A stretch of 32,000 bases of DNA from Planctopirus limnophila DSM 3776 (GCF_000092105.1 NC_014148.1:2580001-2612000); one strand, 5' to 3'. Counted from the stretch's first letter, positions 5,840 to 32,000 are shown. Translations and numbers: made by a program. Notes: generated by a model from the letters alone, not told the origin.

Positions 5840-5918
5840 CTGAATTCAAGTGTAACAACCCAACGGAAAAATCAGAGTGACTGATGCTTGAATGCATGAT
5901 CTCATCACGTTTTAGTTC

Positions 5919-7295: not shown

Positions 7296-7345
7296 GGATT
7301 TAATTCATGTCACAATCAAGGTTGGCAATTTCATCACAGTTGTTT

Positions 7346-8824: not shown

Positions 8825-8862
8825 CTGGAATTGATCCAGCGGAACTCAATCGCCTGGAAACT

Positions 8863-9651: not shown

Positions 9652-9653
9652 GA

Positions 9654-10712: not shown

Positions 10713-10876
10713 TTCACAGCGTTTTTGATTACTCAAAACATTATTTTCAATATGCCTGCATGTCATCGAAACGTCAAGTCACATTTTCTGCATCATTGAC
10801 GTGCAAGAGCTTTCTGCTCCTAATCTTTGGGAAATCCGGAAGGGATGATCCCCAGACTCTGAAAGAGCTTGACTTT

Positions 10877-11797: not shown

Positions 11798-11939
11798 TTC
11801 ACAGAGATACGTCTCGCAGTTTTCATCGTCAGGCTCATTTCAAAACATTCACAGCCTGGCCGATTGGCGAACTCTCCTTCCGATTTATAATTTGTAGTTC
11901 GTCCATCTAAGCATTAAGTACGCTCGCCCGGAAAGGCTG

Positions 11940-12605: not shown

Positions 12606-12653
12606 TTCAGCACAGGTCGCATCTGGATGACCAGAATTGAATCATCCCGCCAA

Positions 12654-13592: not shown

Positions 13593-13743
13593 GGAGAAAC
13601 TCCTTTTCAAACCGAGCAGCACCACCTTGAAGTCGAGGTTGCGGTATCGATAGTATTCAGGCGGTATGCTCACGAATGGTGTTCGCCATTCTGCTCAATC
13701 ACTCACCAGTCATATCCCACTCGTCCTCACCCAAGGTTCTATC

Positions 13744-14871: not shown

Positions 14872-15030
14872 TCGTCCCGTGCAGTTCCAGCTCTCGATGA
14901 ATGCGGGCAATATCCACTCATTTCCAGCGGCTGGCTGAAACCCAGTCGCTGGAATGCTCGATGTCGCCAAGCCTCACCCTCTGTGGAAGACTTTCAAGCA
15001 AAGCCACGCACTTAAGGTGCATCAAGCAGC

Positions 15031-16218: not shown

Positions 16219-17489
16219 TGCAGACCTCTTCATCTGCAACGACCTCGCCAAGTAAAGGTATGGCGGCTGGGATCAATATTCCGGACCTATTGATCCGCTG
16301 GGTGTGCTGCTGGTGGCTCCTCATGATTCTCGCCACCTGGCCTTTGTGGTGGGGTGTTCACGAATTTCCTACGATCCCGTATGTGCCTCTCATCGAGAAG
16401 TTTTCGCCGTGGGTCGATCCTGTCGCAACCATGGTTTTATTCATCGGTCTGCTGGCAGGAGTTTTGTTTCCCAACCCAAAGACGTGGTGGTGCATTCCGG
16501 TCTTGTGCAGCACCTGCTGGCTGGTGCTGGCCAGTCAGCAACGACTGCAGCCCTGGGTCTGGCATAGCGGTTTGATCGTTTTGAGTTGGCTGCTCTTTTC
16601 GCCTCGAACCGCGAGCCGCTGGTGGCTCGTGATCCTCACGACAATTTATATCTGCTCGGGAATCTCGAAACTCGACCTGGCCTTTGCCCATGAACTGGGC
16701 CCCACGCTTCTGGGTGGGTTGCTGCAGTCACTGGGGCTGAGCGCGATCTCCCGGCTGTGGTCACCCATCACCTGGCATACACTCAGTCTGGCTCTCCCCG
16801 CTGGTGAACTGCTGGTAGGGATACTGGTTGCCATCCCTCGTACGCGCACCGTGGGACTGATCCTGGCGATGATCATGCATGGCCTGCTGATCTCAGCTCT
16901 CGGCCCGAGGGGATTGAACCACAGCGCGGGGGTGCTCCTGTGGAACATCAGTTGTGCGGGAATTGCTTTTGGTCTTCTGGTACAGCATCGCCAGCTTCGA
17001 AAATCAAAACGGCAGAGCGAGCCACTTTTGCCAAAGGTTGAGAGTCTACAGACTCCATCCAGGCCGCTCTTCTCTTTCCCAGAAAATGTTCGTCACTTGG
17101 TAATGGGAAGTCTCCTCTGGCTCCCCGCGCTATTGGTTCTGTTTGAGCTCGGTGCCCCGTGGACAGGCTGGGCGGTCTATTCGATGCGCAGTGATAAAGT
17201 TGCACTTTACCTCAACGAAGACGACCTGCAAAAACTCCCGCCGTCATTGCAAAAGTGGGTCGAGCCAGGACTCCCCGAAGGCCCCTGCGCCGATCTCGAT
17301 CATCTCCACCGGCTGGCTTTGAATCATTGGACTCTCACCGAACTCAAAGCTCCCATGCCACCACAAAAATCATTCTCGATGGCAGTGATAGAGCACTTGA
17401 TCGAGGTGTATGCGCTCGACAGCCCGCTAGTCGCCCTAGGACACCCCAGTTCACGTTGGTCGGCAGTACGAACCTGGAGTTGTCAATAA
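16218..17489 (+). CDS. polytopic Trp-rich membrane protein of unknown function
   Basis: Several hydrophobic segments and about 110 soluble C-terminal residues. The ATG at 16218 overlaps the upstream stop (TGATG at 16216-16220), suggesting translational coupling. I recognise no family motif. Confidence 0.55.
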   Translation: MQTSSSATTSPSKGMAAGINIPDLLIRWVCCWWLLMILATWPLWWGVHEFPTIPYVPLIEKFSPWVDPVATMVLFIGLLAGVLFPNPKTWWCIPVLCSTCWLVLASQQRLQPWVWHSGLIVLSWLLFSPRTASRWWLVILTTIYICSGISKLDLAFAHELGPTLLGGLLQSLGLSAISRLWSPITWHTLSLALPAGELLVGILVAIPRTRTVGLILAMIMHGLLISALGPRGLNHSAGVLLWNISCAGIAFGLLVQHRQLRKSKRQSEPLLPKVESLQTPSRPLFSFPENVRHLVMGSLLWLPALLVLFELGAPWTGWAVYSMRSDKVALYLNEDDLQKLPPSLQKWVEPGLPEGPCADLDHLHRLALNHWTLTELKAPMPPQKSFSMAVIEHLIEVYALDSPLVALGHPSSRWSAVRTWSCQ

Positions 17490-17507
17490 CTCGATCATGG
17501 ATCGACT

Positions 17508-19079
17508 TTAAGACCGCGTCCGCTCAATCGCTTTCTTCCAGCCGGCATACCACGTTTCGCGATGATCGACGCTGATGCGCGGTTCAAAGACTCGATCCAC
17601 ATGCCAGTGATGTGATAAATCGGCCAACTGTGGCCAGAAGCCCGAGGCCAGTCCCGCCAGATAAGCGGCTCCCAGTGCCGTTGTTTCGAGAATCTGCGGT
17701 CGTTGCACGGGAATCCCCAGAATATCGGCCTGCATCTGCATCAGCAGGTTATTCGCTGTTGCCCCGCCATCAACCCGCAATTCAGGAATCGATAATCCCG
17801 AATCACACGTCATGGATTCCACCACATCGCGCGTCTGCAATACGATCGACTCAAGAGCCGCCCGGCATACATGTTCCTTCGTGGCACCGCGAGTCAACCC
17901 ATAGATCGCTCCCCGGGCTTCAGCATCCCAATACGGGGCTCCCAGACCAACAAACGCCGGCACCAGATAGACGCCTCCATTGTCAGACACTCGACTCGCC
18001 AGTTGCTCGCTGTCACTCGCCTGCTGGATAATCTGCAAGCCATCTCGCAACCATTGAATGACCGCACCCGCCGCAAAGATCGCCCCTTCCAGCGCGAAGG
18101 TTGTCTGTCCCGACATTTTCCAACCGGCAGTGGCCAGCAGGCCATACTTCGAGGGCACAATGGAAGAGCCGGTATTCATCACCACAAAGCAACCAGTCCC
18201 GTAGGTGTTCTTGACCAGTCCAGGGGTAAAGCATTGCTGGCCGAAAGTAGCCGCCTGCTGGTCGCCCGCGATCCCTGTGATGGGTAACTCCTCGCCAAAC
18301 CATTTGCGATCCGTCATGCCGAACAGGCCGCTCGATGGCTTCACCTCCGGCAGCATGGCCTGGGGAACTCGAAAGATTTTCAACAACTCCTGATCCCATG
18401 CTCCCTCGTGCAGATTCCACAACAATGTCCGGCTGGCGTTGGTGACATCGGTCGCATGCACCTGACCTGCAGTCAGCCGCCACAGCAGAAACGAATCGAC
18501 TGTTCCAAAGCACAGATCCCCATTTTCTGCCCGTTGGCGCAGGGCAGGGGATTGATCCAGGATCCAAGAAATTTTAGTAGCCGAAAAGTAAGGATCGAGA
18601 ACCAGCCCTGTCTTTTCTCGAATGAGTGGCTCGTGGCCCAACGCCTTGAGCCGGGCACATTCTGGCGAGGTAATGCGGCTTTGCCACACGACAGCATTGG
18701 TGACTGGGACTCCGGTGTGCCGATCCCAGATGATGGTCGTTTCCCGTTGATTGGTCAGACCAATCGCAGAAATCTCTCTGGGAGCAGCACCCACGGCATC
18801 AATCGCCTTACGGGTGCTGCTCAACGTCGTCAGCCACAACTGGTTCGGATCCTGTTCGACGTGCCCGGGTGAAGGGAAGAGCGGCGTGACTTCCTCCTGC
18901 CCCCGCCCCGCCACTTTTCCGTCCCGATCAAACAGTATCGCCCGGCTCGAAGTCGTCCCCTGGTCGAGAGCGAGGATGAAATCTGCCTGCTTTCTTGCAG
19001 ATTTTTGCACGCCACTCAATTCACTTGTCTGACTTCTAACGGGAACATCCCGAGGAAAGGCGGAAGTATTTTCGTCCAT
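17508..19079 (-). CDS. glpK: glycerol kinase
   Basis: ILALDQGTTSSRAILFD, GLTNQRETTIIWD, GDQQAATFGQ and the FGGY C-terminal region are all present. About 35 extra N-terminal residues leave the true start uncertain. Confidence 0.9.
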   Translation of the reverse strand: MDENTSAFPRDVPVRSQTSELSGVQKSARKQADFILALDQGTTSSRAILFDRDGKVAGRGQEEVTPLFPSPGHVEQDPNQLWLTTLSSTRKAIDAVGAAPREISAIGLTNQRETTIIWDRHTGVPVTNAVVWQSRITSPECARLKALGHEPLIREKTGLVLDPYFSATKISWILDQSPALRQRAENGDLCFGTVDSFLLWRLTAGQVHATDVTNASRTLLWNLHEGAWDQELLKIFRVPQAMLPEVKPSSGLFGMTDRKWFGEELPITGIAGDQQAATFGQQCFTPGLVKNTYGTGCFVVMNTGSSIVPSKYGLLATAGWKMSGQTTFALEGAIFAAGAVIQWLRDGLQIIQQASDSEQLASRVSDNGGVYLVPAFVGLGAPYWDAEARGAIYGLTRGATKEHVCRAALESIVLQTRDVVESMTCDSGLSIPELRVDGGATANNLLMQMQADILGIPVQRPQILETTALGAAYLAGLASGFWPQLADLSHHWHVDRVFEPRISVDHRETWYAGWKKAIERTRS

Positions 19080-19172
19080 AGTTGATTCTCATGAGCCAGT
19101 GATTCAGGTGAGACATTTTCACAAGATTCGAATCAACAGTCATGACGCAAGCAACCACAAAGCGGTGACTTT

Positions 19173-20567
19173 TTATTGATGGTGTTCGCTCAGCCATTGC
19201 CCCAGTGCCATGAGCGCAAAAGGTGTGGCAATTAACGGGTCGTCTTCCCGCATTTCACGTTGATCATTTTCCCATCGACCATCAGCGCGCTGTCGATCAA
19301 GAACCCGCCGGATTAACTCGTCCCACTCAGCGGAGTCGATGATTGATGGAATGACCACTCTCAATTCAGCCCACTGCGATGCTTCGTAGTAATCCAGACC
19401 TGCATCCCCATCGGGACTTTTGAATGACTCGCCCTCGTTGACCGTAGAGAAGGGGAGTGGCTTCGCACAGCCGGGTTCGACAGTCGGTCGATGAAGCTCA
19501 GGGAACTGCTTTTGCAAACAGATCTTTCTGGCCATTAACCCGTCCCAGGTCGCTGTAGGATAAGGTCTGGCCTGGGGAAGCTGGTCAGCACTGATTTCAA
19601 AACCTCGCTTATTCAGTGTATTTATGGGATCAGGGGTAAAGAAATACACCGTCACTCCCCTCTGCAAGGGATCATTCACCCGGCATCTACCAAGAAACGT
19701 CTCGGCATCCCGTGTGATGTCCGTTGTCAGGCCATCGGCTGCAGCCAGCGCCATCAGCACCATGCGGGTCACAGAAGTATTGGATGGACTCCCTTCGCGA
19801 TGAGATCGTTCCGAAGTTGTGTCTATCTGTGGAGCACGGTCATTGAGTGCCCCCCACCCCCCAAAATCCGGATCGCTTTGGATCCAGCCCTGGGCCTCAA
19901 TCCGTTGTGAGGCCTGGAGTGCCGCTGTCAATTGACGGCTCAGATCAGAATTTTCCACGGCATGGGTTCGGCTTAATGCCCGAAGCAATAGTGCAGTGGC
20001 ATGAACCGGATAATCAGCCGCCCGGCCGGGACCCTGAACCAATCCCATTTCATCAACATGCTTGGTGAGAAAGTCAATCCCCCGCCGAATGGCGATCGGA
20101 GGAATCACTCCTTCGACACCTTCACTTCGAGTCAGCAAATCGAGTGTTAGTGCCGTCTGACCAACTCCTCCCTGCATAACTCCATAGACCTCAGAGTGCC
20201 ACCCGCCGTCGGCCTGCTGCTGATTTAATAACCATCGAACGCCATGTTTCCATGCCTTCAGACAGCGCTCATACCTTTGGTCTGGTACAGAATCACTTGA
20301 AGCTTTGGTTGGCTTTGCTGCCACCTCCGAAACAGTCCGGAAACTTCTATCGCTGGTGGTGGGTAAATCCTCTTTGGGCTGGGAATCACAACCCGTCACA
20401 AAATGTAACAACCAGATGACACATATTATAGCAGGGCGCTGCAAGACCTTACGCCATGCCAAGATTGAAACAAGGATATTCCAAGGATGCCGTGTCATCA
20501 AAAAGAAGTTCTCCACTGCGAATCTCTTCAAAAACGGCTTTAGACGCATACGGATCACATTTTTCAT
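19173..20567 (-). CDS. prenyltransferase / squalene-oxidase-repeat (terpene-cyclase-like alpha/alpha toroid) lipoprotein
   Basis: QW-type repeats NQQQADGGWHSE and DRQRADGRWEND. The hydrophobic leader ends in a VTGC lipobox. The start is probably an internal Met. Confidence 0.5.
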   Translation of the reverse strand: MKNVIRMRLKPFLKRFAVENFFLMTRHPWNILVSILAWRKVLQRPAIICVIWLLHFVTGCDSQPKEDLPTTSDRSFRTVSEVAAKPTKASSDSVPDQRYERCLKAWKHGVRWLLNQQQADGGWHSEVYGVMQGGVGQTALTLDLLTRSEGVEGVIPPIAIRRGIDFLTKHVDEMGLVQGPGRAADYPVHATALLLRALSRTHAVENSDLSRQLTAALQASQRIEAQGWIQSDPDFGGWGALNDRAPQIDTTSERSHREGSPSNTSVTRMVLMALAAADGLTTDITRDAETFLGRCRVNDPLQRGVTVYFFTPDPINTLNKRGFEISADQLPQARPYPTATWDGLMARKICLQKQFPELHRPTVEPGCAKPLPFSTVNEGESFKSPDGDAGLDYYEASQWAELRVVIPSIIDSAEWDELIRRVLDRQRADGRWENDQREMREDDPLIATPFALMALGQWLSEHHQ

Positions 20568-20663
20568 CAGTCAGTTCGCGGTTCGTCTTCGGACAATTTT
20601 CATTCCGTTGATTCAAGCGGATCAGGTTTTGCTTCGAAACTCCTTCGACCTCCAAAAAGGAAT

Positions 20664-21782
20664 TTGAACATGCGACTCCTGCTCGTTGTAGCACTGGGAA
20701 TGTGTGGTTGGGCATTATGGCAGACGACTGAAACGGCCCAGATCATTGAAACCAGCTTCGAGACGATGCCCGCGGATCGCTCTGAAACTCAAGCAGCCGC
20801 TCCGGCAAAAAGTGAGCGATCCACGGCGTCGCAAGTCTCACATGAAACACAGAATTCCATCGACAAAGGAACACGCTGGCTAATGTCCGCCTTGAATCGT
20901 CGCGGTGTTGGCCCGGATATCGATCAACCCTTTGACCTGAGCTGCACTGCGATCACAGGTCTGGCATTGCTTTCTCAGGGGAACACTCCACGGGGCGGTC
21001 GGCATTCGGCTGAACTTCGGCAGATACTCGAAATCATGCTCATGAGAATCGATGACTTTCCACCTTCCAAAAATCGAGCGGTACAGCTTTCTCTGGTACA
21101 AAGAAAAATTGGACGCCACGCCGACCTCTTTTTTGCGGCACTGTTTCTCAGCCAGACTCTCGGAGAATCGAGCAGTTACGATCGTGAGATTCGCGAGAAA
21201 CTCGAACGACTGATCGATGTCATTGCCAGCAGCCAGAAAGATGACGGCACCTGGGGTGAAGAAAGTTGGGCCCCAATCTTAGGAACTGTCATGGGCTGGG
21301 AATCTCTCAGAGCCTCCAGTTCTTGCGGCATCAAAGTGCAGGCCTCGGCTGAGTTGGCAGGACAGGCTCTGCTCAAAAAGCTGCAAATTAAAAGCCAGCA
21401 GGAAACCAACTGGATGCACGACTTCTACAAGACGGCCTCCACCATCCGGGTCCTGCATTCCACGAAGCATCGACATGAGGCGGCGTACATCGAATGCGTC
21501 CGTCAGATGATTGAGATCGCCAAAATGGATGATCGACCTTTTCTCCACGCAGGTGGCGAAGAATACCTGGCGTTTTACTTGATGACAGAATGCCTGCTTC
21601 AAGAACAACGCGAAGACTGGCAACAATGGTACCCACTCGTCTGCAATCGATTGGTTAAACATCAGAACCGGGACGGAAGCTGGACCGGACACCATTGCAT
21701 TACGTCCCGCACCTTCTGCACAGCCGCTGCACTTCTTACACTGCAAGCCCCCCGGCGATCGCTCCCCATGTCCGATCTCTAG
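20664..21782 (+). CDS. secreted prenyltransferase / squalene-oxidase-repeat-like protein
   Basis: Signal peptide MNMRLLLVVALGMCGWALW. QW-like repeats SSQKDDGTWGEE and VKHQNRDGSWTGHH. It is divergent from the similar gene at 19173-20567. Confidence 0.5.
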   Translation: MNMRLLLVVALGMCGWALWQTTETAQIIETSFETMPADRSETQAAAPAKSERSTASQVSHETQNSIDKGTRWLMSALNRRGVGPDIDQPFDLSCTAITGLALLSQGNTPRGGRHSAELRQILEIMLMRIDDFPPSKNRAVQLSLVQRKIGRHADLFFAALFLSQTLGESSSYDREIREKLERLIDVIASSQKDDGTWGEESWAPILGTVMGWESLRASSSCGIKVQASAELAGQALLKKLQIKSQQETNWMHDFYKTASTIRVLHSTKHRHEAAYIECVRQMIEIAKMDDRPFLHAGGEEYLAFYLMTECLLQEQREDWQQWYPLVCNRLVKHQNRDGSWTGHHCITSRTFCTAAALLTLQAPRRSLPMSDL

Positions 21783-21980
21783 TGGCACAGCGCTGGGAGA
21801 AATGTGCTGGATTCAACTCATTTTTTGACGACATTTGCATCACTTGAAATCGAGCTCTCCCGGAGGGCTCTCCCGTAAAAGGATCTGAGCCACAGCCTGT
21901 TCAGCGACAGGTTAACTGGCCCAGAGAGCATGCTGATCCACTTGGACAAAGCGTCAGTACGAAGTATCTTCTCCAGGATC

Positions 21981-22109
21981 ATGTCACGAAAGACCCCTAT
22001 CCCGATCATCGATCTATTCGCCGGCCCGGGAGGCCTGGGAGAAGGTTTTTCCGCCTATTCCCACCACTTGAGAAAATCGTTTTTCAGAATGGCTTTGAAC
22101 AGCTATTGA
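21981..22109 (+). pseudogene. N-terminal remnant of a C5 DNA cytosine methyltransferase (motif I only)
   Basis: Hand translation from the ATG at 21981 gives MSRKTPIPIIDLFAGPGGLGEGFSAYSHHLRKSFFRMALNSY*. IDLFAGPGGLGEGF is the AdoMet-binding motif I (FxGxG) of Dcm-type enzymes. No motif IV (PCQ) or later motif appears in any frame nearby. Confidence 0.7.
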
Positions 22110-22129
22110 GACTCAATAAGAAACCGAAG

Positions 22130-22891
22130 ATGGCTCGCACTGATCTTTGGACTCGTGATCAACTCCTTTTGGCACTTCGGCTCTATTTACGGCTGCCGTT
22201 CGGGAAGTTGCATCGACTCAACCCAGAGATCATTGAACTCGCAAAACTCATAGGTCGCACGCCTAATGCGTTGGCAATGAAGGCATGCAACTTCGCGAAC
22301 CTTGATCCCGAACTTCAAGCTCGTGGAATTCGTGGCTTATCGAATCTCAGCAATGCAGATCGCGAAATCTGGATGGAGTTCTTAACCAATGCTGAGGGCC
22401 TAGCTTCCGAAGCGGAAGAGGCTGCTGAACGAATTGCAGGTGTCGCCATAATTGACCTGCCAGATCTCCGCCTGCCGACGGGCCCGACCGACTTCGAGCG
22501 AACCGTGCGAACACGCCGGGTTCAGTCCTTCTTCCGGGCTGCCGTGTTGACTACCTACAACTCCAGATGCGCGATCTCAGGAGTCGCTGGTGCCGAACTC
22601 CTGACGGCGAGTCACATCATTCCATGGAGCGAATCCATAGAGCGTCGTGCCGACCCCCGTAATGGTTTGTGTCTCAACGCACTTTTAGACCGAGCGTTCG
22701 ACCGGGGATTGTTTTCGCTGGATGACAACTTGCGTGTGATCGTTTCACGACGCCTGATCGACAACGTGGCAGACGCGAAGCTGAAGTGCTCACTGGATGA
22801 AATCGAGGGAAGTCCACTCGCCATACCATCCAGGTTCCGACCGGACCCAGAGGCCATTCGCTTTCATAGGGCTAAGGTTTTCCAACCCTAG
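22130..22891 (+). CDS. HNH endonuclease (HNH_2 / predicted restriction endonuclease type)
   Basis: FRAAVLTTYNSRCAISG...LLTASHIIPWSES...NGLCLNALLDRAFDRGLFSLDD is the HNH_2 signature as I recall it. The N-terminal part, TRDQLLLALRLYLRLPFGKLH..NPEIIELAKLIGRTPNALAMKACNFANLDP, is typical of this group. Start taken as the ATG at 22130. Confidence 0.75.
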   Translation: MARTDLWTRDQLLLALRLYLRLPFGKLHRLNPEIIELAKLIGRTPNALAMKACNFANLDPELQARGIRGLSNLSNADREIWMEFLTNAEGLASEAEEAAERIAGVAIIDLPDLRLPTGPTDFERTVRTRRVQSFFRAAVLTTYNSRCAISGVAGAELLTASHIIPWSESIERRADPRNGLCLNALLDRAFDRGLFSLDDNLRVIVSRRLIDNVADAKLKCSLDEIEGSPLAIPSRFRPDPEAIRFHRAKVFQP

Positions 22892-22997
22892 ATTCATCGA
22901 ACTCAGATGATGAGCATCAATAGGTGAGTCTTGAGCCCTTGTCCTGAGGTGTCCGCTGGTGGCAGTGGAGTGCATGTGGATGCCCGGAAATGCGAAA

Positions 22998-23030
22998 CGC
23001 CTAACTCCCCACAGAATGAGAAGTTAGGCG
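22998..23030 (-). terminator. stem-loop plus T-rich tract downstream of the tRNA-Cys 3' end
   Basis: CGCCTAACT (22998-23006) and AGTTAGGCG (23022-23030) form a 9-bp stem with a 15-nt loop. On the minus strand it is followed by TTTCGCATTT. It lies about 36 nt beyond the tRNA fragment's 3' end. Confidence 0.4.
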
Positions 23031-23065
23031 CTGATGGTCCGCCGGTGGCCACGATTGGCCGCAAA

Positions 23066-23111
23066 AGGCGCCGCCCGGATTCGAACCGGGGATGGTGGAT
23101 TTGCAATCCAT
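23066..23111 (-). other. 3' fragment of tRNA-Cys(GCA): putative attachment-site remnant of the integrative element
   Basis: The minus strand reads ATGGA-TTGCAAA-TCCAC (anticodon arm, GCA), CATC (4-nt variable loop), CCCGG-TTCGAAT-CCGGG (T arm), CGGCGCC (acceptor 3' strand) and T (U73 discriminator). The 26 nt upstream cannot form a D arm or pair with the acceptor strand. So only the 3' portion of the tRNA is present. Confidence 0.7.
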
Positions 23112-23344
23112 CAACCAGTTTACATAACACCATTCCAGAAAAGAACTTACAAAACAACACATCAGTTGCTTGTACCGCCCCTTGTACCAACTCTCAGGCA
23201 GCATTGTCCGAGATTATCATGGCGTGGCCGATGTTACCCGACTACGCGAGGAAAACTGTTCTGCTCATCGTGCGGTCTGAACTAACTGAACAGAATCCCA
23301 AATGACTCCCTGCAGCTAGTAACCTGGCAAGAATTAACTGTCAG

Positions 23345-23476
23345 CTACTTTCTCTCTGTGGACAGCACGTTCGCTGCACAGCCCAAAATGAATATCGCAA
23401 GAGTCGCCCAACCAAACGGCGTGGACAAGAAACTCCAAATGACGCCCCAGAAAATACCCCACACGAGTCCGTCAAC
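23345..23476 (-). CDS. possible 43-aa hydrophobic micro-protein (TTG start)
   Basis: Hand translation gives (M)TDSCGGIFWGVIWSFLSTPFGWATLAIFILGCAANVLSTERK*. AGGAA lies 7 nt upstream of the TTG. A competing ATG-initiated frame (23495 down to 23334) gives a less protein-like product. Confidence 0.25.
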   Translation of the reverse strand, partial: VDGLVWGIFWGVIWSFLSTPFGWATLAIFILGCAANVLSTERK

Positions 23477-23772
23477 TGTCAGTTCCTGAGACATTTGGAA
23501 TCCTTTCCATTAAGGAGTTAATGCGCGTCAGCCATGACGAGCTAACATCAACATCGGAAAGGAAGAAACACAACTTGACGGAAAAAGAATTTCTCGCATC
23601 TTACATCGACCCATCGCCTAGAAATATCGAATGAATCTCAAGTCTCTTCATTTTTTTATGAAGAATCGAGAAACATAATCGCCATTTTCCGGCAATAGTT
23701 GCTCACTCGGCCTATGAACGGCAATATGTCGAGGTTCCGCATCCTTAATGGTCATCACAATAGCTCGTCGCG

Positions 23773-24069
23773 TCAGTTAGAAGAATATGCCAAGAAGAGT
23801 CCGCTGAAACGAATTTGTATAGATGAAATACTGACCTCACACAGAGATAACCTTCTATTAGACAGGACTAAAACTCTTGATTGCTCTGCCTGTTTCAAGT
23901 CGTCGTGCGTCGCTTCTTCAGATAGGCTCAGCAGAAAGCCGTATAAACTCTCATTAATCTTCTTACCTTGTAACGAAGGTGTCCGTCCATTGTGGGTTGA
24001 ATCAGAATCAGCGATCAACCTTTGACAGTTCCTCTCCAATACCGAGAAAGCCAACTCGTTCCATTTCAT
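23773..24069 (-). CDS. hypothetical small protein downstream of (and overlapping) the large NTPase gene
   Basis: 98-aa track ORF overlapping the 3' end of the 1544-aa gene by 62 nt. An in-frame TTG around 24016 would reduce the overlap to about 9 nt. I recognise no motif, and the region is AT-rich. Confidence 0.25.
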   Translation of the reverse strand: MKWNELAFSVLERNCQRLIADSDSTHNGRTPSLQGKKINESLYGFLLSLSEEATHDDLKQAEQSRVLVLSNRRLSLCEVSISSIQIRFSGLFLAYSSN

Positions 24070-27000
24070 CGATTAAGTTCAAACACCATTTCTTGATTGC
24101 GTCGTCAGTCGCCTGTTCGTTCTGACGCACGATGAGTGTTGAAATCTCGCTTGCCGACATCGCCCCGCGACTAGCGACGTGTGTTCCATCTTCGCCAAGA
24201 AATTCGAGAATTCGTTCCGCAGCACGGCAAATAATATGAGGAAGCTGAACCCTTGACTGATTGAGAGCGTGAAGCAGGCGGTAGGGATCACTTTCAAAAC
24301 AGCGGCTTTCGACAAACCGGGCTATGAAATCCTCCAACTGTAACAGCCTTTCACCCGACATATTGAAGAACGCACTAGACACTTCTTGACGGACGTCCTC
24401 AGATTCGTCGGCGAGAAACTCTTCCAGTCGCTCAGCACATTTGTTTCCAACAACTTCTTCTGAGAGATTTCTCGCATAAACGTCGGCAGCGGCCTTTCGC
24501 ATAGTAACACTGCCAGATCGAATATCATCCCCATCAGTTCCTATCGCAACACCTTGAAGTTCAGCCACAACAATGCGACGGGCGACATTCTCAACAGCTT
24601 TAGAGTTATGGCAATACAGCGCATATCGAAGCAGTTCACGGAGTTGGGTGTAATGAGAGTAAATTGCATAGTAGATGAAGTTATCAAAGGGATATGTTGC
24701 ACAAATGTCTTTAGACTGGCGGCAATTTCTCAAGAATAATTCTACCGCAGTGTCGCGGTCAAAGTTGAGAAGCGGCAGAAATGTATCTATTGCACACGTC
24801 CGTACAGATATGATTGGATCTTGAGTCAATAATTCCAACGTGGGACGAAGTGAATTGAATCGAGTGTAGTCATTAAAAAGAAGAGACGACAACGCTTCGG
24901 CCGCTTGCCCGCGCACGCTATTGATGCCGTGCGAATGAGGATCGCCTCCGTAATAATTCTTCCCATCACCTGTGTCCTGCCAGATATCGGTGCACGGGTC
25001 GGGGTCTTTGGTAGCGTAATAGCACACAATCTCTAGAGCTCTTAGCGGTAGCGATCGAGCGGACAGCCTACGGATACAATTTGAAATCGCCGATCCACAC
25101 GGTCGATTTGGCAAATCGTGAACACGATAAACTACAGTCAAAAACATTTCTGTTGGAAATGCAGAGATCTGCTCATTATCAACTTTCTTTTCTTCCTCGC
25201 TGAGATTTCCAAAGCGACCGAAAAGACCGTTTAGAATGGCTGAAAAATATAGCGGATGGACATCGACGGGCATCTTCGTAACCAAGGAGGCAAACCGGGT
25301 TCGTTCTTTGCGGGTGAACTCTTCCAATAAGCGGGAAAGTTCTTCCGGACCGCCTCCGAATCGATCGGTCTTGCCGTCATACTTTCTCATCGCGGAGACC
25401 CATTGGTCGTCCGTCATCTTTTCTGCACTTGCTTGCTCTATAGGTGGGCCCACCCTGCTGACGAAACTCGTGTTGTCCTCTTTGACAATAGCATCCGACA
25501 GCCTCGGAAACTTCCTTTCTAGTTCCTCGATCCTGAGTGCGACACGGTTAGAAACACGTAAGCGGTCGAGCGAGCGAAGCAGGAGTAACTCGGACGAGCC
25601 TCGCCATCGCGGCGTTTTCTTCTCATATTCGTCGCATAAACCGATGATTTGCGACTCCAGTTGCTGAAACAATTCAGAAGAGCACTTTGGCGAGATCGCT
25701 TTTAAGGCAATCCGACTGATCGCACTCTCGCCCGTTCCGTCTCCACCGCCCGACCAGCTTCCATAACCGATGTTGAGTCGGCGTTGGTCGGCAACAAAGT
25801 ATTCGGCGCAGTCGTTTGCAAATTCCTCGGGATTCTCAGCCCATGATCGAAGTAACAAATACCCGAACGTCTGATGTGAATGTGTCTCAATCGTGGCCAC
25901 GTGGCGCCGAAACGCATCAACCTTGTGCAACGCTAGATGCTGGAGCGACTTTCGCAATGAAATTAGGACAGAGTCATTTATATCGAATGGATCGCCATTG
26001 TTCGAAAGCCATGGCCAAGCACGATTATTCAGGATGCCCGCACCGCGAACTTCAGTCTCCAAAACCGTCGCACGAACACGGTGAAGCATTCGTTCGACGA
26101 AGTACTCTGGTTCATCGGCAGCTGCTTTACCAACCATTATTGCACCAGTGTGCGAATGATTGAGCCGGCATTTGTCGAGAAAATTCCACGTCACGCCATC
26201 GTCAAATTGTTGAACTGCCCGATCGAACCATGTTGCCAGCACATCGATCACGAATCGGGGTGACTCGTTCTCTGCATTGTAATGCTGGCTCCAAAAGTCC
26301 CCTCCGCTGACTCTGCTCTCATAGTCGTCGTAGTCGCCTTTCTCGATCAGTTCGAGATAGATCGCAGCCATTTCATCACTTTTGTGAGCTTGCCCCCAAG
26401 ACATTATCCGTTGGATTCGCTGCCGCCAATCACCGTCGCGAGTCACGTACGGACGAATTAGTCGGGCAATTTCTGCAGATCTATAATCATGCAGGTGGTG
26501 TGATTCGAGAAACCAGATCGCTGCGTTATTGAACCGGGAATCGTCGGACGCGAGCCAATTCTTGAATACATGAAGCGAGTCTAGTAAATTGAACCATCCA
26601 ATGTGATCACGTAGAGCAGCAGAGACGTACCGGGAAAGGTCGCCATCCAAAACGTACGCTTCAAGTAGTTGCCATTCCTCCCGACTCGGCTGGCCAACTT
26701 GCTTGAAACCAGACGCAACCATCCGCTTGATGTGAAAGCGAATAGTTGGCGACTCAAGGATGCTACGAATGTCGTTGATGTACTGGCTGAAATCCTCTTC
26801 TCGACGAAACGCCAGAATCTGACGTACCTGTGCGCGGCGGAACAGATGCTGCTCGGATGACTCGAGAAGTTCGATGACGCTTTGCCCCGAGGCGCAGAAT
26901 CGTCTGGCAAATGCGTAATCAAAGAAAGACTCATGGAAAAACCGATAGTGGCGTTTGTTCGGAACCTCAATCAGGACATGTTCGGAAGCCATGGCTCGGG

Positions 27001-28642
27001 CGTCGTGCTGCCATTCGTCCGTAACTGATATCGGCGCGAACAGAAGTTGCTGTTCGCTCATTTTGGCCGTCAAGGCATCGATCACCTTGTTCCAGCGAGG
27101 TTCGCCACCAAGATTCGTCCTCAAGTTCTGTTGTTTGCGATCCCAATACCGATCGTACAATTCATTGACTGTGTTGAAGCCACGGGTCGGATCACCCTGC
27201 AAGAACAGCAGAAGATGAAACGGAGTGCCCAGGATTTCAAGCTGTTGTTGATTGAGCTTCACTTCTCCATGTCCTGCCAAACCCAGTGAGGCATGGACCT
27301 CAGCTTCGGTAAGCCTTGAAAGCGGAATTTTGGAGAACCCCGATTTGGAATTATCCAAGGTTCGCAAACGATGGTCATGTTCAAGATCAAACTCACGACA
27401 TGCCAGAATCATTTTCATCTGTGGATAGTTTTTGACGTCCTCACATAGATCACGAAACACCTCCCACATTTGGGGATTACGTCCCGAGACGAGACTCATT
27501 GCATCCAGCTGATCAATAAGTAAGACACTCGGAGCGTTATCCGCTATTCCCGCAAGGACGACTGCCGGGGATGCGCGCAGATCCATCTGCTCGCCGAGTT
27601 GGCTCGCAGTATGGCAGGGTGTGAACAAGTCCATCCTCAAACACAGATGTGGCATGTTGCTCGTCGAGAGTTGCGCTATGCACTGAGCCAAAACACAGCT
27701 CTTTCCAAATCCACCCGGTGCGACCAGCAATACTCCGCGCGATTCCGCCCCTGTGATCGTGTCGATTATTTGCCCGACAACATCACGAGTTATCTGTGCG
27801 GAGTTGATGAGTTCGGTTTCCGTGACCGAGAGATAGCGGCGATTTGCCGCGGTGACCGCATCATTGATCGTGGTGTCCAATTTCCAATTCTGAACTCCAA
27901 TTCCCTTCTCGTAAAAAAACGAACGAAGCCGGTCTCTGTCGATTTTTGGACCAAGGTTCTCAAGAATGAACTCTACGATCATTCGACGGACATCGTCGGC
28001 ATCTAGACGTGAACCGTCTGTGCGGTTGAAGAGTCCATCGATTCGTCGCTTCACGGAGCGTGTCAAGTCCTTGTGGCCGCGTGGAATGACTTCAAGCGTT
28101 TTCAGCGCCGCGAATGCGGAGTTAGGATCTCCGGCACAGATCGGAACGATTCGCGCATCAAACTCTGATCGGAGTTTCCCCGTCAAAATGTTCCTGAATT
28201 CATCAACATTTGTTGGCGTCTTCGCACGCTCCTCCAGTTCGCGAAGTTCGTTCGCACCAGTTGCGGATACGAATCGTGTTTCGGCGTTTGGCCACTGAAT
28301 CCGCTTGGTAAGTAGATCTCCAAGAATGCTTCTGCCGGTGTTCTTGTCTTGTCGACACAGATCGGCAACGGACCAATCCCCGCCTTGCTTCTGGCGTTTC
28401 ACAGAATGGAATTGGAACGCGCCATCATTCGTTTCGAGGTGGAATTCCACGCCGACCGATTCGTCGCCGAATGGCTCCACAGTGATCGACTTAAATCGGC
28501 CCTCAAATAGGTCAAGAACAGCGTCAACGGTCCAGACCGCTTCATAGTGATCACCTAGTTTTGCAGCTTCACCGGCGAGTCGAGGCATTGGAAAACCTAA
28601 ACTATAAGGCAAGTTGAAGAAGTTTCGTTGTCCAGTCGTCAT
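24008..28642 (-). CDS. NLR-like STAND (NACHT-type) NTPase with N-terminal PD-(D/E)xK (Cap4/DUF4297-like) nuclease-like domain and C-terminal HEAT/ARM-like repeats
   Basis: 1544-aa ORF. The N-terminus reads GDHYEAVWTVDAVLDLFEG...ITVEPFGDESVGVEFHLE...FQFHSVKRQK, with E56/D60...K82 as a tentative nuclease core. The Walker A is VAPGGFGKS (aa 307-315, nt 27698-27724) and the Walker B is VLLIDQLD (aa 373-380). The sensor-1-like motif is MILACREFD. The winged-helix motif typical of NACHT/STAND proteins is YRFFHESFFDYAFA (aa 566-579). The C-terminal 950 aa or so are helical, with HEAT-like units (DPIISVRTCAIDTFLPLL, ADESEDVRQEVSSAFFNM). Confidence 0.7.
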   Translation of the reverse strand: MTTGQRNFFNLPYSLGFPMPRLAGEAAKLGDHYEAVWTVDAVLDLFEGRFKSITVEPFGDESVGVEFHLETNDGAFQFHSVKRQKQGGDWSVADLCRQDKNTGRSILGDLLTKRIQWPNAETRFVSATGANELRELEERAKTPTNVDEFRNILTGKLRSEFDARIVPICAGDPNSAFAALKTLEVIPRGHKDLTRSVKRRIDGLFNRTDGSRLDADDVRRMIVEFILENLGPKIDRDRLRSFFYEKGIGVQNWKLDTTINDAVTAANRRYLSVTETELINSAQITRDVVGQIIDTITGAESRGVLLVAPGGFGKSCVLAQCIAQLSTSNMPHLCLRMDLFTPCHTASQLGEQMDLRASPAVVLAGIADNAPSVLLIDQLDAMSLVSGRNPQMWEVFRDLCEDVKNYPQMKMILACREFDLEHDHRLRTLDNSKSGFSKIPLSRLTEAEVHASLGLAGHGEVKLNQQQLEILGTPFHLLLFLQGDPTRGFNTVNELYDRYWDRKQQNLRTNLGGEPRWNKVIDALTAKMSEQQLLFAPISVTDEWQHDARAMASEHVLIEVPNKRHYRFFHESFFDYAFARRFCASGQSVIELLESSEQHLFRRAQVRQILAFRREEDFSQYINDIRSILESPTIRFHIKRMVASGFKQVGQPSREEWQLLEAYVLDGDLSRYVSAALRDHIGWFNLLDSLHVFKNWLASDDSRFNNAAIWFLESHHLHDYRSAEIARLIRPYVTRDGDWRQRIQRIMSWGQAHKSDEMAAIYLELIEKGDYDDYESRVSGGDFWSQHYNAENESPRFVIDVLATWFDRAVQQFDDGVTWNFLDKCRLNHSHTGAIMVGKAAADEPEYFVERMLHRVRATVLETEVRGAGILNNRAWPWLSNNGDPFDINDSVLISLRKSLQHLALHKVDAFRRHVATIETHSHQTFGYLLLRSWAENPEEFANDCAEYFVADQRRLNIGYGSWSGGGDGTGESAISRIALKAISPKCSSELFQQLESQIIGLCDEYEKKTPRWRGSSELLLLRSLDRLRVSNRVALRIEELERKFPRLSDAIVKEDNTSFVSRVGPPIEQASAEKMTDDQWVSAMRKYDGKTDRFGGGPEELSRLLEEFTRKERTRFASLVTKMPVDVHPLYFSAILNGLFGRFGNLSEEEKKVDNEQISAFPTEMFLTVVYRVHDLPNRPCGSAISNCIRRLSARSLPLRALEIVCYYATKDPDPCTDIWQDTGDGKNYYGGDPHSHGINSVRGQAAEALSSLLFNDYTRFNSLRPTLELLTQDPIISVRTCAIDTFLPLLNFDRDTAVELFLRNCRQSKDICATYPFDNFIYYAIYSHYTQLRELLRYALYCHNSKAVENVARRIVVAELQGVAIGTDGDDIRSGSVTMRKAAADVYARNLSEEVVGNKCAERLEEFLADESEDVRQEVSSAFFNMSGERLLQLEDFIARFVESRCFESDPYRLLHALNQSRVQLPHIICRAAERILEFLGEDGTHVASRGAMSASEISTLIVRQNEQATDDAIKKWCLNLIDEMERVGFLGIGEELSKVDR

Positions 28643-28921: not shown

Positions 28922-29026
28922 GCTCGCTGACCCGTCTTGCCTTCGTGTTGCGGTTCGCGGCAGCGAGGAGTGTAGCGTACGCGGAACGAGCGAGCGGGAG
29001 CGAACCGCAACGCGAGCTGAGCGAGC
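28922..29026. repeat. nested palindrome / cruciform-capable element upstream of the RHH-Rep module (candidate replication origin or recombination site)
   Basis: GTTGCGGTTCGC (28947-28958) and GCGAACCGCAAC (29000-29011) are a perfect 12-bp inverted repeat, extendable to 15 bp with one T-G pair. At its centre sits the 8-bp palindrome GCGTACGC (28975-28982). Outer arms are GCTCGCT (28922-28928) and AGCGAGC (29020-29026). Confidence 0.55.
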
Positions 29027-29038: not shown

Positions 29039-29096
29039 TTGACATCGTCACATATGACGGTACTATTTCCGTCACACTGTTCGTCACACGTTGACA
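29039..29096 (+). promoter_or_regulatory. candidate promoter with repeated CGTCACA sites upstream of the RHH gene
   Basis: TTGACA (29039-29044), a 16-nt spacer and TACTAT (29061-29066) form a sigma70-like promoter. CGTCACA occurs three times (29046, 29070, 29082; spacing 24 and 12 nt). The first copy is part of the inverted repeat CGTCA-CATA-TGACG (29046-29059). Confidence 0.35.
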
Positions 29097-29106: not shown

Positions 29107-29517
29107 ATGGCAAAGAAGCAATCCGCAATGACTCCCCCCAAACCAGCGAGTAGCCCAGAAGCAAGCGGCAAGGCTCGCGTGGAACTCCGATTCGACGCCG
29201 ACGTCCTCGAAAAGATCAGGAAACTGTCAGAAGACGCTCAAATCAGTGTGAATCAACTGATGCACGGATTGGCCCGTTGGGCCACAGAAAATGTTCATCC
29301 TGGCGAACCCTACTTCATTCCAGGCAATAAGTTTGTCCAAGTCAAACGGCAACCTGGTGTTGTCTGGGCAGGCAAAGATAACTTCTTGCCGTCTGAAGAG
29401 GAGAAGCAGGAATACCTCGCGATGACAAACGGAGAATCGAGCCTAGAAGACAAAGAAGGGGAAGTTTACTTCATTCTCGATTTCACAGAGCGTCGAGTGG
29501 TTCGCGAGGATTTTTAA
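29107..29517 (+). CDS. ribbon-helix-helix (CopG/Arc-like) DNA-binding protein with extra C-terminal domain
   Basis: RVELRFDADVLEKIRKLSEDAQISVNQLMHGLARWA has the beta-strand/helix/helix pattern of RHH regulators. The remaining 80 aa have no motif I recognise. Confidence 0.55.
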   Translation: MAKKQSAMTPPKPASSPEASGKARVELRFDADVLEKIRKLSEDAQISVNQLMHGLARWATENVHPGEPYFIPGNKFVQVKRQPGVVWAGKDNFLPSEEEKQEYLAMTNGESSLEDKEGEVYFILDFTERRVVREDF

Positions 29518-29577
29518 GCCTTACTGCGTTCAAAAGCCTTGGTCTTCATCACAACACTTTTTGGAGCATTTAGCGTC

Positions 29578-30873
29578 ATGGATGACGAAACTGAATTTGA
29601 GAATGATTCTCTGACGATGGCAGCAGGTGCGGCCTCAAGTAACACGCACCTGCAAACTAGCCAACCTGTTGAATCCATATCAGGAATTGTCGCTATCGAT
29701 TGGTGGGAAGTTGGAGCCTGTGCCCTTTGGAGCACGAGTTCAAAGTCAGCCTGCGGAAAGTTTTTTCCGAAGCTGGAGGAACTGAGAGCCGCATCTCAAG
29801 ACACCAAGCAACCTCAGTTCATCCAGATTGGCAATAACGTCTGGCAAGTGATGGCCAAAGGGCGGGGCGGTGGCAAAGGAGCCTACTATCGTTACCAGCT
29901 GAGCTGTGAAGGAATTTCTGTCGCCCTGGGTGCCCAAGGCGGACAGTCACGACTTTTTTCCAATTTTGCTTACACAATACCTGGCGAGGCATGCCTGCTT
30001 CTGGGTGTTCCTGAATCCGAAAAACGAATCCAAGATGTTCTGACATATTTCGGTGGAACATTCACCGATCGATGGATCCGAAGAATCGATCTGTGCCTCG
30101 ATACACTGTATCCAGATCTCTGCCTGACCTTCTGCAAACTCCTTTTAAGTGGATACTATGTTGGATCAACTCGCGACTACGCTCTTTATCGATCCGCGGG
30201 CAACACTTCTGGATTTGGAACCACTTCATCCAGTGGCATTCAGATTCGTGTTTATGACAAACTCACAGAGTTATCGAAGAAATCCGAAGCGTATCAACTC
30301 GAGATGTATGCCAATCGCTGGGGCGGTGAGATTCCCTCCAGTGCTACGAGGATTGAGTACCAAATCAGAAAGGAATACCTCGCCCTATTCGGCATCAAGA
30401 CACTGGACGAAGCCGTCAAACGACTGCCAGACATCATTCGCCGAGTGACTCAGTTTGAACCAAATCCTCACTTTGGATTCACAACTTCGGTTCCTGATCG
30501 GGCCAATAATCATCAATCACGTGCCACCATTCACCCTTTGTGGGCGGCCGTTATCCACAAATTTCAACAATTTGCAGGGACTTCCCAAACCCCTCTCAAG
30601 CGAGTCGACCGAGGAAATCTCAATAATCGCAGAGCTCATCAAATGATCTCCGGCTTCCTAACAACTTCAGCAGCCAAAAGCGGCTACCCAATCAAGAATC
30701 TAAGCGATGCTCAGAATTGGTTGAAGGAACTCTCTGAACGGAACAACTTCACCGATACCGATTGGAAACTCAAAGGCGAAATGAAAGCGAAGTCGGAGAA
30801 TCAATCCATGGATTCTCACCGTTACCAGTCAAACTGGGAAGTCGATCGGGAGGATGTCGATGGACCACGATAA
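29578..30873 (+). CDS. rolling-circle replication initiator (Rep_trans / replication initiation factor-like)
   Basis: VAIDWWEV, WIRRIDLCLD, GIQIRVYDKLTEL and ATRIEYQIRKEYL fit the conserved blocks of the Rep_trans family as I remember them (IDWL.FT, R.DLA.D, R.YDK, R.E.E.R). Start taken as the ATG at 29578; the track's TTG is at 29539. Confidence 0.55.
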   Translation: MDDETEFENDSLTMAAGAASSNTHLQTSQPVESISGIVAIDWWEVGACALWSTSSKSACGKFFPKLEELRAASQDTKQPQFIQIGNNVWQVMAKGRGGGKGAYYRYQLSCEGISVALGAQGGQSRLFSNFAYTIPGEACLLLGVPESEKRIQDVLTYFGGTFTDRWIRRIDLCLDTLYPDLCLTFCKLLLSGYYVGSTRDYALYRSAGNTSGFGTTSSSGIQIRVYDKLTELSKKSEAYQLEMYANRWGGEIPSSATRIEYQIRKEYLALFGIKTLDEAVKRLPDIIRRVTQFEPNPHFGFTTSVPDRANNHQSRATIHPLWAAVIHKFQQFAGTSQTPLKRVDRGNLNNRRAHQMISGFLTTSAAKSGYPIKNLSDAQNWLKELSERNNFTDTDWKLKGEMKAKSENQSMDSHRYQSNWEVDREDVDGPR

Positions 30874-31085: not shown

Positions 31086-32000
31086 ATGGCCAGTCTCTTC
31101 AAACCCACATATACCCGAAAGAATCCGAAAACTGGCGAGCGTGAACTCGTCAAATCCAAGAAGTGGTACGGGCAATATCAGGATGCCCATGGGCAGCGTG
31201 TTCGCGTGCCGTTGTCGACCGACAAAGCCGCCGCGAATGCCATGCTCAATGAGCGTGTCAAACGGGTTCAAAGAGGCGAAGCAGGGCTCTGTGACCCATT
31301 TGAAGATTCCCGGCGACTACCGATCATCGAGCACCTCGAAGCCTTCATTCAATCACTCGAAGTGAAGCGTGTTTCCTCGAAACATCTGGAAGTCTCGCGA
31401 GCACGTCTCACCAAGATCTTCACCGAATGCAAATTCCACTCCTGGGATGACCTGAGCCACGGGAAATTCAATCACTGGCTGCTGGAGCTGCGCAAAAGGG
31501 GAGTGTCTGCCCGCACTGGTAACTACTATCTCCAAGTCTTGCGGCAGTTCTGCAACTGGATAAAACGCGATGGCCGCGCCCCTTCCAATCCGTTCGAGTT
31601 CGCCGAACCAGTTCGCGTGCTCGATGGCGAGACAACTCGGCCTCGTCGCTCAGCAACTCCTGGTGAGATCGAGCGACTGATCACAGCCACCCGCACTGGC
31701 AAAGACTTCGGCGTTCCTGCGGAAGATCGTGCGATGCTTTACCTGGTGGCCTATGCGACTGGTTTACGAGCTTCTGAGCTCGCCAGTCTGACTTGCCACA
31801 GCTTCGACCTAGGCAACTCTTCTCCATCTGTCACAGTCGAAGCCGGTTATTCAAAGCGACGACGAAGGGATGTCTTGCCGCTCCCATCGTTCGCCGTTGA
31901 AAAACTCATGGGTTGGCTGGCCGTCAAACGATCTGTGAACCCTGCAATAAAACTTTGGCCTGGGCGATGGCCGAACAAAGCCGCATTGATGCTTTCGCGT
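31086..32000 (+). CDS. tyrosine recombinase / phage-type integrase (3' end beyond window)
   Basis: Absent from the ORF track because no stop occurs. My hand translation from the ATG at 31086 is open for 305 codons to nt 32000. The SAM-like N-domain reads HWLLELRKRGVSARTGNYYLQVLRQFCNW. Catalytic box I reads LVAYATGLRASELASL. Confidence 0.85.
   Translation, partial: MASLFKPTYTRKNPKTGERELVKSKKWYGQYQDAHGQRVRVPLSTDKAAANAMLNERVKRVQRGEAGLCDPFEDSRRLPIIEHLEAFIQSLEVKRVSSKHLEVSRARLTKIFTECKFHSWDDLSHGKFNHWLLELRKRGVSARTGNYYLQVLRQFCNWIKRDGRAPSNPFEFAEPVRVLDGETTRPRRSATPGEIERLITATRTGKDFGVPAEDRAMLYLVAYATGLRASELASLTCHSFDLGNSSPSVTVEAGYSKRRRRDVLPLPSFAVEKLMGWLAVKRSVNPAIKLWPGRWPNKAALMLSR

Follow-up and report, generated by a model that had tools for sequence, protein, structure and literature searches.

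A probable Avs7-family anti-phage STAND protein carried by a small integrative element of Planctopirus limnophila

To which family does the product of a very long open reading frame (ORF) of the planctomycete Planctopirus limnophila DSM 3776 belong, and what might it do? The stretch that we analysed (GCF_000092105.1, NC_014148.1:2580001-2612000), hereafter the window, is 32,000 nt long and all positions are counted from its first nucleotide. The longest ORF, of 1544 codons plus a stop, runs without interruption from 24008 to 28642. A first-pass annotation, made from the sequence alone, had given these limits without the strand, which is the minus one; it had seen in the product a nuclease, a STAND NTPase and a helical sensor in a single chain, and had left as its key question whether this combination belongs to a described Avs or bNACHT clade. 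Our answer, drawn from sequence comparison, is Avs7. We conclude that the protein belongs to that family, with the Cap4 type of effector of its Salmonella enterica member SeAvs7, because profile homology in all three modules goes together with aligned functional residues, like lengths and a C-terminal helix that is kept. The mechanism of the family appeared in print in 2026, and the protein is a new and as yet uncharacterised member of it. Residue numbers follow the 1544-amino acid (aa) ORF, in which M19 is the probable start.

SeAvs7 is an anti-phage sensor of capsid protein (Lee et al. 2026; bioRxiv 10.64898/2026.01.04.697583; Nature, PMC13581612), and the description that follows is taken from that work. 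It defends against Drexlerviridae phages, the trigger being the major capsid protein. The apo form (structure 9N00; the other structures are 9N01 and 9YIX) is ADP-bound and autoinhibited. Its sensor, which has two lobes, wraps around the HK97-fold major capsid protein, after which the lobes close on each other and the NTPase is freed; ATP binding then leads to an asymmetric tetramer, in which the assembled Cap4 domains degrade double-stranded DNA (dsDNA). When Cap4 is inactivated, neither defence nor toxicity remains. Open-form EF-Tu attaches to the outer face of the sensor and boosts assembly. Over the family as a whole, for which the authors curated a list of 3,272 homologues (Supplementary Table 7 of Lee et al. 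2026), the sensor is bilobed and sharply bent, the C-terminal helix is conserved and the N-terminal effector varies.

The profiles and conservation counts used below were derived from an alignment of 35 full-length homologues, 33-67% identical to the query. When compared with all PDB chains, the full profile gave one significant match, SeAvs7 (9n00_A, also 9n01 and 9yix; 1523 aa, E = 3.1e-54), a chain that bears the PDB title 'AAA family ATPase'. The match covers nuclease, NTPase and sensor, and consists of two collinear stretches, residues 58-665 against SeAvs7 57-656 and residues 974-1385 against SeAvs7 958-1372. Each half is also recovered separately: the N-terminal profile alone, which extends from Cap4 through the NTPase and the winged helix into the first part of the sensor, aligned with SeAvs7 at E = 2.5e-32 (12-629 against 11-621), and a sensor-only profile matched 9n00_A at E = 1.3e-18 (stretches 408-785 against 961-1340 and 27-89 against 591-651). 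Pairwise BLASTP against SeAvs7 segments rebuilt from the profile alignments put the identity at 23% (N-terminal half, E = 1e-18; C-lobe of the sensor, E = 1e-6). The middle segments that did not align are of nearly equal length (~309 aa, residues ~665-974, against ~302 aa, SeAvs7 ~656-958), and so are the whole proteins (1526 aa from M19 against 1523 aa).

The N-terminal domain had been read as a Cap4/DUF4297-like nuclease, and the profile searches agree: Pfam Cap4_nuclease (PF14130) matches aa 23-160 above its curated threshold (E = 4e-7; 30.8 bits, where the gathering score is 26.2), the PADLOC LmuA/DUF4297 models match aa 22-119 (2.8e-6), and in the N-terminal profile alignment the domain is collinear with the Cap4 domain of SeAvs7 from SeAvs7 residue 11 onward. 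An AlphaFold model of aa 19-650 (predicted local distance difference test score, pLDDT, 87.8; predicted template modelling score, pTM, 0.72) gives the nuclease part an alpha-beta-beta-beta secondary structure. Six residues (E34, E56, E66, S80, K82 and Q84) are invariant in the alignment, and the conserved nuclease residues map to helix 1 and the first three strands of the model, as a PD-(D/E)xK core predicts. Among the nuclease residues proposed earlier, E56, D60 and K82, the first and the last are invariant; the D60 column is variable (D in 15 of the 35 sequences, E in 10, another residue elsewhere). Since E66 is invariant, it would, on this conservation, fit better than D60 and should replace it in the proposed set.

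Searched against the PDB with Foldseek, the same model had EcAvs4 as its best fold match (8dgf_A, E = 1.3e-11), the other top folds being NLRC4, the NACHT module of NLRP3 (TMt 0.53), EfAvs5 and NLRP1, then ORC/Cdc6-type AAA+ proteins. Because EcAvs4, NLRC4, NLRP3 and EfAvs5 are its best PDB folds, the central module is established, at the level of the model, as a STAND NTPase. The functional residues reported for SeAvs7 (Walker A K291/T292, D358, R395, the autoinhibitory R367 and winged-helix H545; PMC13581612) have counterparts in the Planctopirus protein (Table 1), of which K314/S315, D377, R416 and H570 are invariant across the 35 homologues. R388, downstream of Walker B, aligns with R367, the residue of the autoinhibitory contact, and is kept in 33 of the 35; an ACR(D/E)FD motif is common to both proteins. 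The label 'NACHT-like' given by the first-pass annotation is loose, because Pfam NACHT (PF05729) did not match the protein at E<=1 and the best Pfam NTPase model, nSTAND_NTPase5, stayed at 20.8 bits, under its cut-off of 34. Weak NACHT matches were seen in two relatives (P0096 and P0240), and an NCBIfam search of the protein returned nothing meaningful.

The C-terminal region was modelled by AlphaFold over residues 590-1544 (955 aa) as an all-alpha solenoid (pLDDT 90.6, pTM 0.67). Foldseek (PDB to 2026-04-08, a set that does not hold 9N00) matched this confident model to HEAT-repeat proteins only, i.e. CAND1, the importin-beta family and SF3B1, with low template modelling scores (TM) of 0.2-0.3; a sensor of ~950 aa with HEAT-like units had been proposed. 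In the model a terminal helix lies at aa ~1535-1543 of 1544, its SeAvs7 counterpart being 1511-1521 of 1523, and the C-terminal motif is strongly conserved, with C1520, L1521, I1524, D1525 and M1527 invariant. The sensor profile matches 4309 clusters in a library of 1.84 billion proteins. Taken together, the profile, PADLOC, AlphaFold and Foldseek checks that had been suggested gave a significant nuclease profile match and a STAND fold match, and the nuclease, STAND NTPase and helical sensor layout is supported by Pfam, by the fold matches and by the solenoid model.

The 1544-codon ORF is clearly a real gene: full-length homologues number in the hundreds (~1500-1550 aa, 30-76% identity). The same protein, identical, is present in several independent assemblies. 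It corresponds to Plim_2009 (ADG67838.1, 1526 aa; WP_148227066.1, 1544 aa), which public records name hypothetical or 'dsDNA nuclease domain-containing protein' (WP_148227066.1). Translation probably starts at M19 (window 28588), judging from the alignment, because 'MPRxGG' at the equivalent of M19 forms the first residues of all 34 aligned homologues and because GenBank ADG67838.1 has 1526 aa. The sequence motifs quoted in the first-pass annotation were all recovered in the ORF at the residues it had given (Table 1). A scan for promoters and terminators around the gene gave counts not above those of shuffled sequence. Compared by megablast with E. coli genomes, the region had no match, the window not being enterobacterial.

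The homologues are spread in a patchy manner over many phyla. In GTDB species representatives we counted 527 loci, in Planctomycetota, Chloroflexota, Cyanobacteria, Acidobacteriota, Verrucomicrobiota and Myxococcota, plus one Methanothrix bin; plasmid copies occur in Rhizobium, Sinorhizobium and one Isosphaeraceae strain. Several stand among mobile or defence genes, including restriction-modification, BREX-like and Gabija-like ones. The Gimesia alba locus has two flanking integrases, an FtsK/TrwB-like ATPase, a relaxase-like gene and ParE; the Sorangium locus lies among IS66 elements and a serine recombinase; and in one metagenomic genome the homologue adjoins PglZ, DNA methylase and Schlafen/AlbA genes. 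In two genomes (L005/L007, ~4000-22600) it sits inside a conserved island made of an SNF2-NOV_C helicase, DUF1016, a nucleotidyltransferase/HEPN pair, DUF1156, an AAA_15/21 ATPase, DUF433 and DUF499; in the homologue locus L006 a transposase additionally breaks the DUF1156 gene. Two other homologue loci were uninformative. A survey, without a control set, of the 106 ORFs of >=230 aa found within 4.5 kb of the homologue in 32 further genomes repeatedly met GajB-like UvrD helicases, type IIG restriction-modification, NERD-UvrD, SoFic, SIR2, Schlafen/AlbA, integrases and transposases. Among the best sensor-profile matches, the same NTPase-sensor body is found without an effector or with a DUF4062 N-terminus. 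One relative of 1782 aa (P0125), with the same NTPase and sensor, carries in place of Cap4 additional N-terminal sequence that matches DUF4062 weakly (9.8e-5); relatives of ~1250-1300 aa have no N-terminal effector, and the shorter proteins among the top 150 library matches are NTPase plus sensor without effector, not SIR2 fusions. These differences fit the effector swapping described for Avs7.

How does the protein compare with the systems that it resembles? With SeAvs7 it shares the order of the three modules, the Cap4 effector, the NTPase residues, a homologous sensor, the C-terminal helix and the status of a single-gene system with horizontal spread; it differs by its host, by a sensor N-lobe that cannot be aligned, by EF-Tu contacts that are not kept and by being known from sequence and models. 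Avs1-4 (e.g. EcAvs4, 8DGF, or the Cap4-bearing SeAvs3) follow the same nuclease-STAND-helical sensor logic, and EcAvs4 is the best N-terminal fold match, but they sense terminase or portal. Membership of Avs1-4 was rejected: no sensor similarity was found, the PADLOC Avs2 match was weak and restricted to the NTPase (9.5e-5), and the profile search of the PDB returned no Avs3 or Avs4 chains. Dsr1 (defence-associated sirtuin 1) has an Avs7-type sensor and is likewise triggered by capsid protein (PMC13581612), but possesses a SIR2 effector and no NTPase. The best PADLOC model was the candidate PDC-M54A, which matched the NTPase (1.3e-15) at the same position in a profile of 1621 positions; it also matched the sensor in 4 of the 20 family members compared (best 2.5e-5). 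Its coverage is partial and no partner gene is evident beside the ORF, whereas the name PDC-M54 suggests a multi-gene candidate; no published function was found for PDC-M54A, which may be of the same broad family as the Planctopirus protein. bNACHT proteins and eukaryotic NLRs have in common with it the STAND fold, the winged-helix His motif and the Foldseek matches to the NACHT modules of NLRC4 and NLRP3, but its sensor is not made of leucine-rich or NACHT-associated repeats, and the bNACHT assignment was rejected for want of a Pfam NACHT match. CBASS Cap4 and Lamassu LmuA have the same N-terminal nuclease family (DUF4297); unlike them, the Planctopirus protein would be activated through its fused STAND module. 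CBASS was set aside since the protein has no SAVED domain and its neighbourhood no CD-NTase, and Lamassu since the LmuA models cover nothing beyond aa 22-119 and no LmuB/SMC-like neighbour is present.

For the Planctopirus protein and its homologues, then, the domain identities, the conservation of the catalytic residues, the homology to SeAvs7 in three modules and the mobile and defence contexts are observed. By analogy, we consider it probable that the protein is an Avs7-family antiviral STAND (bacterial NLR-like) protein working as SeAvs7 does; from that analogy we infer the ligand (capsid protein, by homology at ~23% identity), the oligomeric state and the abortive outcome. At rest it would be an ADP-bound, autoinhibited monomer, with the C-lobe of the sensor restraining the NTPase and the Cap4 domain. 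On infection, the helical sensor would clamp a newly made phage structural protein, most likely, by homology, an HK97-fold major capsid protein. The clamp would put an end to autoinhibition and allow ATP binding (K314/S315, D377, R416, H570) and assembly into an oligomer, a tetramer in the case of SeAvs7; the assembled Cap4 domains (E34, E56, E66, S80-x-K82) would then degrade dsDNA indiscriminately and the infection would be aborted.

Several observations weigh against so direct a transfer of the SeAvs7 mechanism. Identity to SeAvs7 is only ~23%, and the family profile was needed because phmmer with the single sequence found no match among PDB sequences. Some 300 residues of the sensor (aa ~665-974, roughly the N-lobe) have no significant alignment to SeAvs7, therefore ligand specificity could differ. 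The ligand assignment is the weakest step: with a region too divergent to align, the ligand may be another phage protein. One of the five EF-Tu contacts of SeAvs7 is identical (A, E, S1083, K1087 and D1093 in the Planctopirus protein versus Q999, D1003, K1044, H1048 and D1059), in columns that also vary within the clade and where the alignment is of low confidence. As the contact residues are not conserved, the EF-Tu step was left out of the scheme above and, judging from the alignment, it probably does not apply. With regard to the sensor, for which the bilobed, bent shape of Avs7 would be expected, the matches of the model were generic HEAT solenoids only (TM 0.2-0.3, in the PDB set that does not hold 9N00), and the sharing of the sensor with Dsr1 was not reproduced with the PADLOC Dsr1 models, which matched neither the protein nor 20 family sensors. 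The beta-3 motif of the nuclease is SxK, against the usual (D/E/Q)xK and against QxK in SeAvs7; no member of the clade departs from it. Restriction enzymes such as Cfr10I have an SVK variant in which the acidic residue is relocated. Finally, the uncontrolled neighbour survey also held housekeeping and metabolic genes, and is therefore supportive rather than quantitative.

The divergence of the sensor could mean that the body plan is that of Avs7 and that the Planctomycetota-centred clade senses a different trigger, another phage protein or a perturbation of the host, without EF-Tu. Besides the N-lobe region that cannot be aligned and the EF-Tu contacts that are not conserved, it can be said for this view that related helical sensors of other Avs families have switched targets and that EF-Tu binding is predicted for one clade only, 192 of 1,757 Avs7 representatives (PMC13581612). 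However, two distinct systems with the Avs7-type sensor, SeAvs7 and EcDsr1, are reported to be triggered by capsid protein, and AlphaFold3 supports a broad interface with that protein which is conserved in other Avs7 homologues (PMC13581612); furthermore, the unaligned segment is as long as that of SeAvs7, which suggests divergence and not replacement. We regard a different trigger as unlikely. That the protein is not anti-phage at all, and serves the element that carries it (by addiction or by exclusion of competing mobile elements) or has a regulatory role like non-immune STANDs, would be in keeping with its being the main cargo of a mobile element (see below), with the interspersion of defence and non-defence STAND clades (PMC13581612) and with the uninformative or housekeeping neighbourhoods of some homologues. 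We hold this for very improbable in view of the Cap4 dsDNA nuclease, a typical immune effector, of the closest characterised relative, an experimentally proven defence protein, and of the several homologues found inside clear defence islands. As for a decaying or inactive copy without current function, to which the slightly lower G+C content toward the 3' end and the non-canonical SxK motif might point, its probability seems almost negligible: the frame is intact over 4.6 kb, all residues for catalysis and for nucleotide binding are the same in homologues that are 33-67% identical, the invariance of SxK in the clade means that it is no private lesion, and identical copies of the protein come from independent assemblies.

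The Avs7-like gene, the probable capsid sensor of the above scheme, lies in what had been called a small integrative element, a description that the integrase, the excisionase-like gene, the tRNA-Cys fragment and a repeat support, with the right end beyond the window (Table 1). Four plus-strand genes, from 29107 onward, stand upstream of the Avs7-like gene and are divergent from it; the role of the 444-aa protein can be guessed, from its position, as replication or maintenance. On the other side, downstream of the gene, the 3' portion of a tRNA-Cys(GCA) can be read, with the anticodon arm, the CCCGG/TTCGAAT/CCGGG T-arm, the acceptor strand and the U discriminator; its 5' half is absent, and ARAGORN found no complete tRNA in the window. 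From its sequence this piece reads as the copy of the attachment (att) site at the left end of the element. Two independent read-archive assemblies with the identical protein break at window 23081, and one contig (L011, 9356 bp) covers exactly 23081 to window-equivalent 32436. The imperfect copy of the last 131 nt of that span directly adjoins the tRNA fragment, and the two together form a flanking direct repeat. Because of the assembly breaks at 23081, the span of the contig and the 131-nt repeat beside the tRNA fragment, the locus bears the signature of a ~9.4-kb integrative element inserted at a tRNA-Cys gene, with the Avs7-like gene as its only large cargo. An intact tRNA-Cys and the right att copy are expected just past window-equivalent 32436; a search for this right end by exact-pattern scan of GTDB genomes gave 0 matches, and the protein-based GTDB scan did not include the P. 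limnophila locus. Being the main cargo of an integrase-bearing element explains the horizontal spread of the gene. The cargo had also been described as visibly AT-richer than the flanks. The difference exists and is modest, with a G+C fraction of 0.502 for the ORF versus 0.531 for window 1-22900; the only outliers are the 3' third of the ORF (24008-25500, 0.48) and the 940 nt downstream of it (0.458).

Table 1. Position of the Avs7-like gene, its domains and motifs, and the components of the integrative element
Feature	Window	Strand	Residues	Remarks
Probable true coding sequence	24008-28588	-		start M19 (window 28588), 1526 aa
Candidate Cap4-type PD-(D/E)xK dsDNA nuclease domain and helical linker (effector)	27878-28588	-	19 to ~255	
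Predicted nuclease catalytic core	28391-28543	-	34-84	E34 (helix 1), E56, E66, S80-x-K82, Q84
Motif GDHYEAVW			30-37	confirmed in ORF
Motif LDLFEG			43-48	confirmed in ORF
Motif ITVEPFGDES			53-62	confirmed in ORF
Motif VEFHLE			65-70	confirmed in ORF
Motif FQFHSVKRQK			76-85	confirmed in ORF
STAND NTPase (nucleotide-binding, helical and winged-helix subdomains)	26873-27817	-	~276-590	
Walker A GGFGKS	27698-27715	-	310-315	K314/S315 invariant, aligned to SeAvs7 K291/T292
Walker B LLIDQLD	27503-27523	-	374-380	D377 (and D380 in the motif); D377 aligned to SeAvs7 D358
Sensor-1 ACR	27395-27403	-	414-416	R416 aligned to SeAvs7 R395
Winged-helix motif FFHESFFDYAFA	26906-26941	-	568-579	invariant H570 aligned to SeAvs7 H545
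Alpha-solenoid sensor, homologous to the Avs7 sensor	24011-26872	-	591-1544	
136-aa protein	29107-29517	+		weak ribbon-helix-helix/Arc-like match; divergent from the Avs7-like gene
444-aa element protein	29539-30873	+		no match in Pfam, PHROGs or PADLOC
Excisionase-like HTH_17 protein, 74 aa	30854-31078	+		
Tyrosine integrase	31086-32000, runs past the window	+		PHROG phrog_1 1.9e-27; Pfam Phage_integrase; at least 450 aa on contig L011
tRNA-Cys(GCA), 3' portion	23067-23112	-		read from sequence; downstream of the Avs7-like gene
Imperfect copy of the right-terminal 131 nt of the element	22934-23066			source window-equivalent 32306-32436 (3' end of the integrase); ~85-90% identical, small gaps

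No new mechanism is revealed by this analysis. What it offers, by analogy with SeAvs7, is a specific and testable function for a 1526-aa protein, that of sensing phage capsid protein in the Avs7 manner and degrading DNA through its effector, and the same assignment would extend to homologues, numbering in the hundreds, from Planctomycetota, Chloroflexota, Cyanobacteria, Acidobacteriota and Verrucomicrobiota. To our knowledge, almost nothing is known experimentally about phage defence in those phyla. The 9.4-kb element, with its integrase and excisionase, is in addition a compact example of a single-gene immune sensor that moves between genomes. It is conceivable, if doubtful, that the Planctomycetota-centred clade forms a functionally distinct Avs7 lineage, characterised by a sensor whose N-lobe has diverged, by independence of EF-Tu as co-factor and by an SxK Cap4 site, that it recognises another phage component or binds the capsid proteins of planctomycete phages in another mode, and that its vehicle is a minimal tRNA-Cys-integrating 'defence shuttle' with no other cargo.

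A few other features of the element and of its surroundings were noted. Between the Avs7-like gene and the ribbon-helix-helix gene there is a 16-nt inverted repeat, 94% complementary, with arms 41 nt apart (28943-28958 and 29000-29015), to which the small repressor-like protein may bind as its operator; the same divergent intergenic region contains a promoter-like TTGACA-16-TACTAT at 29039-29066. One copy of the sequence CTTGTACCGCCnCTTGTACCAA is present close to either end of the element (~23167-23190 and contig L011-equivalent ~32240), so placed that the two copies flank the att core in the circular form; judging from their position, they could be arm-type binding sites of the integrase. Within the element, ~500 nt downstream of the Avs7-like gene and on the same strand, lies a 49-aa ORF with two hydrophobic segments, MSQELTVDGLVWGIFWGVIWSFLSTPFGWATLAIFILGCAANVLSTERK (23345-23494, minus strand); in contig L012, too, it was predicted as a gene. 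Immediately beyond the left att region, a plus-strand gene (22106-22891) codes for a 261-aa HNH endonuclease (PADLOC 'HNH' PDLC04132, 4.7e-87; Pfam HNH_2, 5.9e-15) with matches of the type II restriction enzyme kind, and no methylase was seen beside it among the ORFs scanned. Far from the element, two adjacent minus-strand genes (5919-7295 and 7346-8824) code for ABC-3 metal-transporter permeases, each with a C-terminal dimerisation domain of the DtxR-type iron-dependent repressors, and a ZnuA-like binding protein gene (9654-10766) adjoins them.

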